The notes under the pieces were generated by a model. That model was not told the origin of the DNA. It ran no database searches and worked only from the letters and a program-made list of their open reading frames with translations. A stretch of 64,000 bases of DNA, taken from assembly GCA_963832165.1 (NCBI GenBank), contig CAWHTE010000001.1, positions 448,001-512,000 of the forward strand, in the 5' to 3' direction. Shown in pieces: positions 3 through 5,796 of the stretch. How positions within the stretch are numbered: the first letter of the stretch is position 1; each line of letters opens with the position of its first letter. A program made the position numbers and the translations under genes. This DNA is from an uncultured delta proteobacterium (GTDB lineage: Bacteria > Myxococcota_A > UBA9160 > SMWR01).

Positions 3-1196
3 GGCCGCTTCGGGCGCGACAGCGCGTGGCGCACGATGGCGCTGTTCGGCGCGCTGGACGAGTTCCGGCACACCCAGATCCCGCTGCTCGTGTTCCACGA
101 TCTCGTGAAATGGGATCCGCAGTTCGACTGGGTGCACCGCTTCTATCACACCAACAACTGGGTGGCGATCGCGGCGCGGCACTTGATCGACGAGCTGCTG
201 CTCGCCGCGAATCCCGTCGAGTTCGCGATCGGCACGAACTTCGTGTTCGAGACCGGCTTCACGAACCTCCAGTTCGTCGCGCTCTCGGCGCTCGCCCGCG
301 ACGCAGGCGACCCGATGTTCGAGACGATGGTGAAGAGCATCCAGACCGACGAGGCGCGCCACGCCCAGATCGGCCGCGCCGTGCTCGAGATCCTCGTCAA
401 GAACGATCGCGAGTACGCACAGCACCTCGTCGACAAGTGGTTCTGGCGCAGCTGGCACCTGTTCAGCGTGCTGACCGGATTCAGCATGGACTACCTGACG
501 CCGCTTTCGGCGCGGCGCGCGTCGTTCAAGGAGTTCATGGAGGAGTGGGTCCTCGACCAGTTCGTCGAGGTGCTCGACGCCTACGGGCTGTCCCGGCCCT
601 GGTACTGGGAAACCTTCGTGCGTTCGCTCGACCACTACCATCACATGGTGTACGCGAGCGCCTACACCTATCGAGCGACGGTCTGGTTCGACCTGGTGGT
701 GCCCGGTCCGGAAGAGCGCGCTTGGCTCGCCGAGAAGTACCCCGCCTCGTGGCCCTCGCTCGCTCCGGTCTGGGACCGCGTCGACGCGGGCTGGCGCGAG
801 AGCGACCCGGATCTCGACTTCGCCGCGCACGGCTCGGCGATCGTCACGTTCTGCGACACCTGCCAGCTCGTGCTCTGCGAGGGAACGCCCACGCGCAACA
901 GCGCCGAGACGCTCGTGCACGGCGAGCGCAAGTACATCTTCTGCTCGGAGCCGTGCCGCTGGATCTTCGAGCAGGAGCCCGAGCGCTACGCGGGCCACCG
1001 CGACGTGGTCAAGCGCGTGCTCGCGGGCGAGGCGCCCGGAAATCTCGCCGCGATCTTGACCCAGTACTTCGGGCTCACTCACGAGACCTGGGGGCGCGAC
1101 GCCTACCGCGGTCGATACGACTGGCTCGAGCGCCCGGCGAAGCCGACGCCGACGCTTCCCACTGCCGCAGAGGCACCCGACGAGCGCCGGCCATGA
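3..1196 (+). CDS. tmoA: Soluble diiron monooxygenase hydroxylase alpha subunit (TmoA-like), 5'-truncated by the window
   Basis: Diiron motifs DEFRH, FETGFTNLQF and QTDEARH; C-terminal YHS-like YIFCSEPCRWIFEQEPERY; frame open from the window start. Confidence 0.9.
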   Translation, partial: GRFGRDSAWRTMALFGALDEFRHTQIPLLVFHDLVKWDPQFDWVHRFYHTNNWVAIAARHLIDELLLAANPVEFAIGTNFVFETGFTNLQFVALSALARDAGDPMFETMVKSIQTDEARHAQIGRAVLEILVKNDREYAQHLVDKWFWRSWHLFSVLTGFSMDYLTPLSARRASFKEFMEEWVLDQFVEVLDAYGLSRPWYWETFVRSLDHYHHMVYASAYTYRATVWFDLVVPGPEERAWLAEKYPASWPSLAPVWDRVDAGWRESDPDLDFAAHGSAIVTFCDTCQLVLCEGTPTRNSAETLVHGERKYIFCSEPCRWIFEQEPERYAGHRDVVKRVLAGEAPGNLAAILTQYFGLTHETWGRDAYRGRYDWLERPAKPTPTLPTAAEAPDERRP

Positions 1197-1456
1197 GCGT
1201 GCTCATCCCGCTGTACGGATTCCTCGAAGGCGACACGATCGGGTTGATCGTGCTCGCGCACGACGACGATCCGATCGCGCGCGTGATCGCGAAGCTCCAG
1301 CACTCCGCGCGCTGGCGCGTGGCGAAGCTCGAGAACGCGCGCGCGTACCACGCCGGCCGAGAGCTCGACTCCGCGCAGACCGTGGCAGAGGCCGGGCTCA
1401 CGCCGCTCGAGCGGATCGACGTGCGCAGGGCGGGGGACGCGGGCGATGCTCCGTGA
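1193..1456 (+). CDS. tmoB: Monooxygenase gamma subunit (TmoB-like)
   Basis: MSVLIPLYGFLEGD...TVAEAGLTPLERIDV, 87 aa; ATGA overlap with the tmoA stop. Confidence 0.85.
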   Translation: MSVLIPLYGFLEGDTIGLIVLAHDDDPIARVIAKLQHSARWRVAKLENARAYHAGRELDSAQTVAEAGLTPLERIDVRRAGDAGDAP

Positions 1457-1760
1457 CGCGGCAGCCCTCGACGAGCTCCGGATCGGCGAGATGAAGGGCG
1501 TCGTGCTCGATGGCCGGCCGGTTCTGCTCGTCCGGCTCGACGATGGCGTCCGTGCGTATGCCGACCGCTGCTCGCACCAGGGCGTTCGCCTCTCCGAGGG
1601 GCGGCTCGACGGGACGCACCTCACCTGCCATGCGCACGAGTGGCTCTACGACGCAGCGACGGGCCGCGGCATCAACCCGGCCTCCTGTGCGCTCACGGCG
1701 TATCCGGCCGAGGTACGCGCGGGCCGCATCCTCGTCGACCCCGAGGCCGGCGCGCGATGA
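1446..1760 (+). CDS. tmoC: Rieske [2Fe-2S] ferredoxin (TmoC-like)
   Basis: CSHQ...CHAHEW Rieske ligands; GRGINP motif; position in operon. Confidence 0.9.
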   Translation: MLRDAAALDELRIGEMKGVVLDGRPVLLVRLDDGVRAYADRCSHQGVRLSEGRLDGTHLTCHAHEWLYDAATGRGINPASCALTAYPAEVRAGRILVDPEAGAR

Positions 1761-2959: not shown

Positions 2960-3336
2960 GCGCGCTGCGGATCCTGCTCGTCGAAGACAGCGTGGCGGAT
3001 GCCGTGCTCACCCAGCGCGCGCTCGAGGTCGGCGGAGCTGGGCAATTCGCGCTCAGCGTCGCGGCTTCGCTCGGGGAGGGCATCGACCGCCTCGCGCAGG
3101 GCTTCGATGCGATCCTGCTCGATCTCACACTGCCCGACAGTGTCGGGCCCGAAACGGTGACGCGGATGCGGGTCGCGGCGCGCGAGCTGCCGATCGTCGT
3201 GCTGTCGGGCGTCGAAGATGCGGAGACGGCCGACCTCTGTCTGCGCGCGGGCGCGGTCGCCTACCGACCGAAGGGGCGCATCGACGCCGTCGAGCTGCGG
3301 CGGATCGTGGAGGGTGCGATCGGGCCCGGGCGATAG
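2956..3336 (+). CDS. Single-domain response regulator
   Basis: ILLVEDS...AILLDLTLPD...IVVLSG...YRPK; ATGA overlap with the tmoE stop. Confidence 0.88.
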   Translation: MSALRILLVEDSVADAVLTQRALEVGGAGQFALSVAASLGEGIDRLAQGFDAILLDLTLPDSVGPETVTRMRVAARELPIVVLSGVEDAETADLCLRAGAVAYRPKGRIDAVELRRIVEGAIGPGR

Positions 3337-3354
3337 TAGATCCAGACCGAGAAT

Positions 3355-5796
3355 GTGGCGGAAGCGCCGCAAACCTCTTGGGGGAAGATCGTGGAATTCT
3401 TCAGCGAGTTCATGCCGCACGGGCATTGTTATGCGTGGACGCCCTCGATCTTGTGGGCGTCGGTGCTCTCCGACGTGACCATCGCCATCTCCTATTTCTC
3501 GATCCCGATCGCGCTGCTCTTCTTCATTCGCAGACGCGACGACCTCCCGTTCAGCTGGATCTTCGCGCTGTTCGGCGTCTTCATCCTCGCGTGCGGGACC
3601 GGTCACGTCCTCGAGGTCTGGAACACATGGCACGGCGCCTATGGGGGGCAGGCGATCGTGAAGGTGATCACGGCCGTCGCGTCGATCGGGACCGCGGTGG
3701 CGCTGTGGCCGCTCTTGCCGCGTGCGCTCGCGTTGCCGAGCCCGCGGCAGCTCAGTGAGGCGAACGAGTCGCTGCGCGACGAGATCACGATCCGCGAGCA
3801 GGCCGAGGGTGCGCTGCAAACGCAGGCGCGCGAGCTCGAGGTGGCGCGCGATGCCGCGCAGTCGGCGAGTCGGGCGAAGAGCCAGTTCCTCGCGAACATG
3901 AGTCATGAGATCCGGACGCCGCTCAACGCCGTGATCGGCCTGTCGGAGATCCTGCTCGACACCGATCTGACCGAGGGCCAGCGCGATCATCTGCGAACCG
4001 TGATCGATTCGGGCGACGTGCTGCTCACGGTCGTGAACGACATCCTCGACTACTCCAGGATCGAAGCCGGCAAGATCGAGCTCGAGAGCGTGGTATTCGA
4101 CCTCGACGACGTGGTCGGCGACACGCTGCGCTCGCTCGCGGTCCGCGCCGAGCACAAGGGCATCGAGCTCATGTGTCAGCTCGATGCCGACGTGCCGAGG
4201 GCGCTGCGCGGCGATCCGGGCCGGTTGCGGCAGGTGATCTCGAACCTGGTCTCGAACGCGATCACGTTCACCGAGCGCGGCGAGGTCGAGGTGCACGTGG
4301 CGCGCGAGGCCGAGGGCGTGCTTCGCTTCAGCGTGCGCGATACCGGAATGGGCATCGAACCCGGCGACATCGACCGGTTGTTCGAGTCGTTCGAGCAGGC
4401 CGACAAGTCGTCCTCGCGGCGCTTCGGCGGCACGGGCCTCGGCCTCTCGATCAGCCGCGGTCTCGTCGCGTTGCTGGGAGGGAAGATCAGCGCGGCGAGC
4501 ACGCCGGGCGTGGGCAGCACGTTCACGTTCACGGCGAAGTTCGAAGAGCTGGAGGCCGCGCCGCTCGAACCCGCGCGCCAGGCGATTCCGCTCGCGGGCA
4601 CGCGCGTGCTGATCGTCGACGACAATCCCACCAACCGGGTGATCCTGTTCACGCTCGCTCGGCGCTGGGGGATGGAGCCGGTTCCGTGTTCGTCCGCGGC
4701 CGAGGCTCTGTCGGTGCTCCGGCAGGTCGGGGAGGGCGGCGACCGCGTGCCGCTGCTGCTGCTCGATCTGCACATGCCCGGGACCGATGGCTTCGCGCTC
4801 GCGGCGCGCATCCGCGCCGACGCCGCGCTCGACGATCTCTCGATCGTGCTGCTCACCTCGGCCGGCATGGCCCAGGACCTGCGCCGCTGCGAGGAGCTCC
4901 GGATCGCCGCACGGCTCATGAAGCCCGTGAAGGAGTACGAGCTCTACGACGTGGTGGCGCGCGTGCTCGGCCACCGTTCGGCGAGTGCTCACGCGAACGC
5001 GGCGCGCCGCGCCTCGATGGCGACGGGCGCTCGCGCCTCGGGATCGATCGCGCTCGGCTCGCAGCGGATCCTGCTGGTCGAGGACAGCGTTCCGAACCAG
5101 AAGGTCGCGCTCGCGATCCTGCAGAGCCACGGGCACACCGTGGTGATCGCGAACGACGGCCAGGAGGCGGTCGGATTGTTCACGGCCCAGGAATTCGACG
5201 CGATCCTCATGGACATCCAGATGCCGGGCATGGACGGCTTCGCCTGCACGGCCGCGATTCGCTCCGCGGAGTTCGGCACCAACCGGCACATTCCGATCAT
5301 CGCGATGACGGCGCACGCGCTGGCCGGCGACCGCGAGAAGTGCCTGGCGGCCGGCATGGACGACTACGTTTCGAAGCCGATCCGCCGCGAGGATCTGCTC
5401 GGCGCACTCTCCGCGGCAATCCAGCACACGCGCGGCGTGGTCGACTTCTCGGGGGTCCTGTCCCAGCTCGGCGACGACCGCGAGGCGCTGCGCGACGTCG
5501 TCTCCGCCTACGTCACCGAGACGCGCGAGAACCTGGAGCGCCTGCCCGCGACGATCGCGTCGGGTACGTGGAAAGAGGTGCGCCGGTTGGCCCACACCAC
5601 CAAGAGCGCGATGCGCGTGTTCGGCGCGCACGAAGCGCAGCAGCTCGCCGAGAGCCTCGAGCAGCTGGCTCAGATGGAAGACCGCAGCACTGCCGCCGAT
5701 CTGTACCTGCGCATGAAGAGCGCGGTCGAGGGCGTGGTCGAGGTGTTGGCGCGCTTCGCGAACACGGGGGTGATGGACACGCGCGAGGCGCGTTAG
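3355..5796 (+). CDS. Hybrid histidine kinase with ETR1-like ethylene-binding TM domain, HisKA, HATPase, two REC and Hpt
   Basis: [20 protein letters not shown]...FILACGTGH...[24 protein letters not shown]; two receiver domains; RLAHTTKSA. Confidence 0.92.

Follow-up and report, generated by a model that had tools for sequence, protein, structure and literature searches.

An uncultured delta proteobacterium of the Myxococcota, a soil organism, carries, on a single strand, a Tmo-type diiron monooxygenase operon followed directly by genes for a receiver protein and for a hybrid histidine kinase with an ETR1-type sensor domain. Plant-type ethylene receptors are known in a few bacteria, in which they steer behaviour, and ethylene oxidisers among other bacteria have a regulator that responds to the epoxide product. 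The window analysed here is the whole 64,000-nucleotide stretch at positions 448,001 to 512,000 of contig CAWHTE010000001.1 (assembly GCA_963832165.1). Its positions 3 to 5796 encode, in order, tmoA (cut at its 5' end by the window edge), tmoB, tmoC, tmoD, tmoE, the receiver and the kinase, as read from open reading frames (ORFs), Pfam domains and the raw sequence. In the genome to which the window belongs (G000; 5.5 Mb in 11 contigs, 89% complete), an ETR1_N match and a monooxygenase operon of this type each occur exactly once, and the two lie 0.4 kb apart on one strand. The original prediction knew of no description of this pairing, and none for an ETR1-type kinase paired with a monooxygenase was found in the literature searched, the coverage of which is limited; the available part of a review of soluble diiron monooxygenases makes no mention of histidine kinases or two-component systems.

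The ETR1-type sensor domain

The kinase gene (3355 to 5796, plus strand; probable start a GTG at 3391, which is the start used by 13 kinase orthologues) encodes, in Pfam terms, the domains ETR1_N, HisKA, HATPase_c, REC, REC and Hpt. The sensor domain occupies kinase residues 32-127 (3448 to 3735, plus strand) and matches PF25487 (ETR1_N) over model positions 2-97 of 97, scoring 127.3 bits where the cut-off is 27 (E 2.8e-37). Hydrophobic segments at residues 37-59, 63-89 and 98-122 (Kyte-Doolittle hydropathy, 19-residue windows scoring at least 1.5) predict three membrane helices. The ethylene-binding positions of Arabidopsis ETR1 (AtETR1), D25, Y32, I35, P36, I62, C65 and H69 plus the helix-3 lysine K91, have their counterparts in D40, Y47, I50, P51, I77, C80, H84 and K103, with the same spacing. 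The N-terminus had been aligned with ETR1 by eye, as keeping the equivalents of D25 through K91, and both the strong profile match and the residue check bear this out: judged by its sequence, it is a true, canonical ETR1-type domain. None of the eight sensor residues varies among the 13 orthologous kinases (75-82% identical), so the kinase is very probably a working copper/olefin receptor, and its ETR1_N domain is likely to bind ethylene-type ligands.

The available part of PMC11819568 names C65, D25, H69 and K91 of AtETR1 and the equivalents D35, C75, H79 and K98 of AzoEtr1, and reports that both bacterial homologues tested so far bind ethylene. The window kinase is like AzoEtr1, SynEtr1 and plant ETR1 in its N-terminal three-helix ETR1_N domain with seven binding residues, in its histidine-kinase output and in the adjacent receiver gene, and its D/C/H/K spacing is identical to that of the four residues of AzoEtr1, an experimentally verified receptor. 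It differs from these receptors in being a hybrid kinase with two receivers and an Hpt domain and with no PAS, GAF or phytochrome module, in having its receiver gene upstream, and in sharing an operon with the genes of a diiron monooxygenase and of another kinase, of the PAS type; its ligand binding is a prediction. A PDB sequence search with the sensor domain returned nothing relevant and matched no solved structure of the domain, and for the kinase NCBIfam gave only sub-threshold generic hybrid kinases.

Gene order and packing of the operon

The hydroxylase alpha subunit is encoded by tmoA (3 to 1196 in the window, plus strand; Phenol_Hydrox, E 3.5e-38, plus YHS). Its complete form of 511 aa occupies 13661-15196 of L005, a record that takes in 14 kb upstream of the window (L005 16433 is window 2433), and begins 339 nt ahead of the window. 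The same strand then carries tmoB for the small (gamma) hydroxylase subunit (1193 to 1456; Pfam TmoB, E 6.2e-11), tmoC for a Rieske ferredoxin (1446 to 1760; Rieske, E 6.7e-17), tmoD for an effector or coupling protein (1757 to 2050; MmoB_DmpM, E 3e-18), tmoE for the hydroxylase beta subunit (2047 to 2959; Phenol_Hydrox split over two frames, E 4.3e-19 and 1.7e-31) and a single-domain, REC-only receiver of the type labelled RRb (2956 to 3336; Response_reg, E 3e-12). ATGA overlaps join tmoA to tmoB, tmoC to tmoD, tmoD to tmoE and tmoE to the receiver gene, and tmoB and tmoC overlap by 11 nt. The tmoABCDE, receiver and kinase genes are packed like one operon. The same-strand run with overlaps up to the receiver gene is thereby as originally described; the 18 bp given for the space before the kinase holds for the longest ORF but becomes 54 bp from the GTG at 3391 that the orthologues support.

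Beyond the window edge a gene for a PAS-HisKA-HATPase kinase ends 12 nt before tmoA, and counting it the run comprises eight same-strand genes with two kinases. The unit is bounded downstream by a convergent Zn-protease-family gene (5793-6260, minus strand). Upstream of the window the order is a thiolase gene, a minus-strand gene for a FadL/TodX-family outer-membrane channel and the PAS kinase gene adjoining tmoA. G000 alone has the channel gene (L005 10708-12393) between thiolase and PAS kinase; in the relatives this place is taken by RR1, a receiver gene. A limonene-1,2-epoxide-hydrolase-like (SnoaL-fold) protein is encoded at L005 5726-6244, about 7 kb upstream of tmoA. A scan of the plus strand of L005 12000-20000 for promoters and terminators, weak as evidence, found no terminator-like site and one weak sigma-70-like site ahead of the PAS kinase gene, and a sigma-54-type pattern matched L005 four times against 3.1 expected, a result without informative value. 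No DNA-binding regulator is encoded within the cluster.

As assembled, tmoE changes frame near window 2433 and the PAS kinase gene near L005 13173. Two genes split between frames, together with the deletions present in relatives, could mean that the locus is decaying and the system nonfunctional in the organism. Public short-read contigs, compared over L005 12200-19800 at a low depth of 2.5-3.9, speak against this, since exactly one base is omitted at each break: at L005 16433 by one contig from run X1 that is otherwise identical over 221 nt, and at L005 13173 by contigs from runs X1 and X2 (one each), which agree. With the extra base removed both frames close, tmoE as 303 aa with a stop at 2959 overlapping the receiver start, and the PAS kinase as 453 aa ending at the stop just ahead of tmoA. 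Both indels lie inside an identical 9-mer, CCAGCCTGC (window 2429-2437 within tmoE, plus strand, and L005 13167-13175), which looks like a systematic base-calling error; further apparent frameshifts of the G000 assembly may therefore be artefacts. In addition, tmoE is unbroken in the two orthologous loci that retain it, those of G004 and L071. Locus decay was rejected because both frameshifts are single extra bases absent from the short-read contigs, after whose removal the frames close, and it is extremely improbable. The tmoE and PAS kinase genes are probably intact and the frameshifts assembly indels, a grading that stays short of proof because the depth is low and run X1 may be the source sample. 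A third copy of CCAGCCTGC (L005 1096-1104) lies inside an open ORF.

The monooxygenase and its reductase-less clade

The iron ligands E104, E134, H137, E197, E231 and H234 are kept in TmoA, as in all 21 aligned rows, and so is T201. TmoA scores about 395 bits against the ToMO and T4MO alpha chains and is 39-44% identical to 19 plasmid-borne TMO-type alpha subunits (XamoA of Xanthobacter Py2, 39.8%; the ELW1 enzyme, 40.9%), which is above the alpha-subunit identity of at least 35% used as the cut-off for TMO group membership (PMC11825192, section 3.1). By these sequence comparisons the enzyme is a TMO-type diiron monooxygenase, and the earlier assignment to the Tmo type finds support in the Pfam domains, the six iron ligands and the alpha identity alike. 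No NCBIfam family, isoA included, matched TmoA at E 1e-5, and none matched TmoE, TmoB or TmoD. The enzyme is like those of T4MO (TmoABCDEF), ToMO, Py2 (XamoABCDEF) and ELW1 in its gene order of alpha, gamma, Rieske ferredoxin, effector and beta, in its six diiron ligands and in T201, with alpha-subunit identities of 40-44%; it differs from them in belonging to a separate deep clade, in being flanked by kinase genes and in having no downstream catabolic genes.

A scan with one genome per species found 61 loci of this clade, with TmoA identities of 51-86% and mostly in metagenome-assembled genomes (MAGs) of Acidobacteriota from soil and peat, with some in Myxococcota, Chloroflexota, Binatia, Verrucomicrobiota and others. 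Of the 60 other loci, 59 have a TmoA identity of 60-70% and two one of 51-55%. Throughout the gene maps of these 60 loci, which rest on crude gene calls from GC content at third codon positions, tmoABCDE occurs without tmoF. A histidine-kinase core is encoded within 2.5 kb in 44 of the 60, and in 39 it is a PAS-plus-kinase protein like the Myxococcota one; seven of the 16 kinase-less loci have less than 2.3 kb of contig upstream. Pfam analysis of 12 representative clade kinases found HisKA and HATPase together with between one and five PAS domains. A PDB search with the PAS kinase encoded ahead of the window returned generic kinase cores only and no toluene-binding PAS domain. A sensor encoded together with oxygenase genes is presumably also the arrangement of the TmoS/TodS-type PAS kinases for toluene.

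In the remaining variation of the clade, a MEDS domain replaces PAS in the kinase of four of the 60 loci (L033 360-1856, L042 5059-6693, L043 13548-15152 and L056 8470-10149), 10 loci encode sigma-54 activators within 5 kb, and eight encode REC-GerE regulators. The MEDS-kinase loci are titled Solibacter, Bryobacterales, Solibacteraceae or Terriglobia. The window operon shares the features of the clade (tmoABCDE without F, an adjoining PAS kinase, TmoA identity of at least about 60%). Only in its Myxococcota genus is tmoE followed by genes for receiver-only proteins and for a hybrid kinase with ETR1_N; other members add REC-GerE proteins, sigma-54 activators or MEDS kinases. Contigs labelled Saccharimonadales (L016) and Obscuribacterales (L011) also carry the clade operon; the TmoA of L016 nests among Acidobacterial sequences, which suggests mis-binning or recent transfer. 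On its distribution, enzyme plus PAS kinase is a mobile cassette recurring across soil phyla. According to the available part of PMC11825192, TMO subgroups A and B are uncharacterised MAG enzymes of Acidobacteria, Binatota and others, and the window enzyme clade is probably one of these two subgroups.

The pairing within the genus

Only one of 40 relatives, G004 of the same genus, has this TmoA (86% identity), and there too ETR1_N sequence follows: an intact tmoABCDE is succeeded by a kinase paralogue 75% identical overall, then by receiver genes RRa and RRb and a remnant kinase gene. The metagenome contig L071 carries thiolase, RR1, PAS kinase, tmoABCDE with an intact tmoE, RRa, RRb and an ETR1_N kinase that is 89% identical to the window kinase, the contig ending inside the gene. 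Compared with L071, G000 has the FadL gene where RR1 stands and has no RRa. A second orthologous contig, L070, retains scars at 1434-1960. There the N-terminal part of the PAS kinase runs in frame into the final ~25 residues of tmoE, and an RRa N-terminus continues as an RRb C-terminus. These scars indicate that tmo genes were formerly present in L070. On this comparison the pairing is ancestral to the genus group formed by G000, G004, L071 and L070. Tight packing is retained wherever enzyme and kinase both remain. The receiver encoded before the ETR1_N kinase is a paralogue (55-59%) of the one encoded before the PAS kinase; the window RRb is 64% identical to the RRb of L071 and 55% identical to the upstream paralogue RR1. 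A further genome of the genus, G006, encodes an ETR1_N kinase of 66% identity in different surroundings, with the lysine changed to N and no Hpt domain, and TmoA was not found in this genome, which is 77% complete.

A possible sense-and-oxidise unit and its alternatives

The reading that would join these features into one system has four steps. At the membrane, the ETR1_N domain would report ethylene or some small alkene like it, and the PAS kinase would report a cytoplasmic cue tied to enzyme turnover, for instance the product or the redox state. Signals from both kinases would pass into a single phosphorelay through the paralogous receiver-only proteins and the Hpt domain, and the enzyme would epoxidise the same class of small alkenes, thereby lowering the signal. 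The broader statement, in which enzyme and kinases make up a single signalling unit, expressed together and taking two inputs, is the favoured reading; it is close to an even prospect, falling a little short of it. That the physiological substrate of the enzyme is a small alkene is doubtful, and the complete sense-and-oxidise link is slightly more doubtful again. A unit that senses and clears ethylene or small alkenes, with the reductase-less clade by extension consisting of alkene (ethylene) oxidisers wired to signalling, is unlikely.

Hints from the neighbourhoods of the clade weakly favour small alkenes as substrates. In L034 and L035, genes for an AlkA-type glycosylase and an O6-alkylguanine methyltransferase (Ogt) follow tmoE on the same strand by Pfam (L034 13425-14865, L035 13426-14881), and the same two gene clusters follow tmoE in L061 (13510-14917) and L063 (13447-14893). 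Alkylation damage such as epoxides cause is repaired by AlkA and Ogt, and such neighbours would fit an alkylating (epoxide) product; the four Acidobacteriaceae loci are probably one lineage. The MEDS kinases beside four enzyme-clade loci are a second hint, and the absence of aromatic-pathway neighbours a third. In the available part of PMC11197473, MEDS is the sensory domain of EtnR2, and EtnR1 and EtnR2 are the epoxide-responsive pair of the ethylene-oxidising Mycobacterium NBB4, which respond to epoxide and not to ethylene. As at the window locus, that sensor is encoded with oxygenase genes. EtnR1/EtnR2 read the epoxide, whereas the window sensor is a copper/olefin domain that would detect the alkene itself, and no DNA-binding output is encoded with it.

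TMO-type enzymes are usually aromatic hydroxylases. An ordinary hydroxylase of the toluene, benzene or phenol type with elaborate regulators, in which the ETR1_N domain reports copper, redox or some other membrane cue, would agree with the retention of F196, T201 and F205, presumably pocket-lining positions, and with the FadL/TodX-family channel upstream in G000; aromatic substrates are plausible for TMO subgroups A and B in the available part of PMC11825192. It sits poorly with the genomic context, which has no phenol hydroxylase or ring-cleavage genes in the flanks; among 39 same-strand downstream genes of other clade loci, too, no ring-cleavage, phenol-hydroxylase or epoxide-pathway families occur, and FadL is found in none of 61 other clade loci. 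Nor does it suit the sensor, whose seven ethylene-binding residues and lysine are invariant across the orthologues and whose two tested bacterial homologues bind ethylene (PMC11819568). The pocket set of the TmoA clade, at positions that are presumably the relevant ones, is L100, A103, P141 and T192; all four positions differ from the toluene-type references, and only T192 is common to XamoA. Taken with these points, the aromatic alternative is distinctly unlikely.

The sense-and-oxidise reading itself has a good deal against it, beginning with the enzyme. A maximum-likelihood tree was built from 21 of the 60 clade loci, picked for taxonomic spread with the other 39 left out, together with three genus sequences and eight references. 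All references except the DmpN outgroup form one 100/100 clade in which alkene and toluene enzymes are mixed, and the clade of the window TmoA is sister to, or outside, that reference clade with its XamoA, ELW1 and toluene types, the root being unsure because DmpN sits on a very long branch. TmoA is no closer in this tree to the alkene enzymes XamoA and ELW1 than to the toluene enzymes and does not group with alkene monooxygenases of the XamoA/IsoA type; the tree does not separate alkene from aromatic function. The five genes A-E are directly followed by receiver and kinase genes, and a reductase gene F is missing from the cluster; Py2 and ELW1 differ in carrying F directly after E. No TmoF-type reductase was found in the 89%-complete G000 genome, whose sole FAD_binding_6 protein, on contig 8, has a C-terminal ferredoxin domain, unlike TmoF. 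Epoxide-processing genes (coenzyme M or glutathione pathway, aldehyde dehydrogenase) are adjacent in Py2 and ELW1; around the window operon there are none over 14 kb upstream and 6 kb downstream. A channel of the FadL/TodX family, as encoded upstream in G000, suits larger hydrophobic substrates.

The bond between sensor and enzyme is also loose in relatives and absent elsewhere. In G004 the tmoE-adjacent kinase (L006, which is G004:C189, 6148-8610) has Leu for the copper Cys and Phe for Tyr, with kinase, receivers and Hpt kept, and the canonical copy (L006 9366-9806) is internally deleted, its first ~55 residues being joined to the Hpt end. In L070 everything from the PAS kinase through tmoE is deleted and the ETR1_N kinase is intact. 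By these sequences, the enzyme has disappeared where the canonical sensor stayed, and the canonical sensor where the enzyme stayed. Within the clade at large the conserved partner is a PAS-type kinase, and no ETR1_N domain lies within 10 kb of any of the 60 other loci (0/60), the only one being in L009, on the contig of G004. Among the ETR1_N metagenome matches listed (n=80) there are three orthologues, L070, L071 and the 1.1-kb L072, and TmoA is present only in L071; the pairing is thus missing from one of the two orthologous metagenome contigs that show context. It is absent from the 77 other ETR1_N contigs among the matches listed and from 35 other ETR1_N genomes. A search of 26 ETR1_N genomes of the phylum sample for Phenol_Hydrox found a real operon only in G004; five other genomes gave weak matches (20-33 bits), which lie either on a different contig or at a distance above 170 kb. 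Across 193 genomes of the window's order, ETR1_N occurs in 13 and this TmoA only in G000 and G004; three genomes of the order have distant diiron enzymes (~30% identity) and no ETR1_N. The adjacency expected of a functional pair thus recurs in the closest relatives, G004 and L071, and nowhere else among the loci examined, with reciprocal losses in L070 and G004. Given its absence from the other clade loci and the other ETR1_N loci, the pairing is, on sequence evidence, one evolutionary event in a single uncultured Myxococcota genus and not a conserved system.

Co-occurrence at the level of whole genomes adds little. The genomes of 50 of the 60 clade loci were searched, and ETR1_N was present in 21, compared with 18 of 401 in the phylum sample and 80 of 301 in the host order. 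The excess looks strong against the phylum sample but shrinks to a weak odds ratio of 2.0 against the host order (p 0.03, with no correction for kinship). No more than four of the 301 host-order genomes carry the enzyme, and two of these have ETR1_N. The domain is common in this Acidobacterial order, that of G561 (80/301 genomes, some with up to four copies), compared with 18/401 phylum-wide, and the Myxococcota phylum sample has it above cut-off in 25 of 401 genomes. A point on the side of the signalling unit comes from two loci, L088 (9977-14314) and L092 (8214-10570), in which an ETR1_N kinase has no monooxygenase nearby and the genes after it encode REC-GerE, REC and a REC-sigma-54 activator. 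The REC-GerE proteins of these loci are 57-70% identical to those beside enzyme operons in 11 Acidobacterial loci, and the kinase cores are 45-55% identical to enzyme-linked kinases. One two-component family appears on these identities to swap PAS, MEDS and ETR1_N sensors, which may only reflect lineage-specific expansion.

On the main rival reading, sensor and enzyme are neighbours by history and not by function, an ethylene-responsive system for surface behaviour, biofilm or motility, of the sort present in Synechocystis and Azospirillum, having come to lie downstream of a horizontally acquired PAS-kinase/tmoABCDE cassette whose enzyme works on another substrate; any co-transcription would then be incidental. 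The cassette is mobile, its tree mixing Acidobacteriota, Myxococcota, Chloroflexota, Binatia, Verrucomicrobiota and others, and most loci provide it with a kinase of its own. Synteny of the flanks (thiolase, Zn-protease, acyl-CoA dehydrogenase) holds with or without tmo, the losses in L070 and G004 fall on opposite partners, the enzyme is absent from all other ETR1_N loci examined, and AzoEtr1 controls biofilm formation and root colonisation (available part of PMC11819568). A functional bond is favoured instead by the stop/start overlap of tmoE with the receiver gene and the tight packing, kept in three diverged loci, and by the paralogy of the receivers beside the two kinases. Since its scars can still be read, the L070 deletion looks recent, and the kinase kept there accordingly says little. 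Neighbourhood by history is a reading with some claim, though on balance an improbable one.

Significance

If the sense-and-oxidise reading were true, the window would hold the first natural case of a cell that reads and removes ethylene or another alkene gas, with alkene sensor and oxidase in one operon. A biological sink for soil ethylene, so far missing, would then have a name, and bacteria would have a means of editing a plant hormone signal. The pairing gives a concrete substrate hypothesis for a large clade of soil monooxygenases. Even if the link is incidental, that clade is always without its reductase, is mostly tied to a sensor kinase (44/60 loci), and swaps PAS, MEDS and ETR1_N sensors between lineages.

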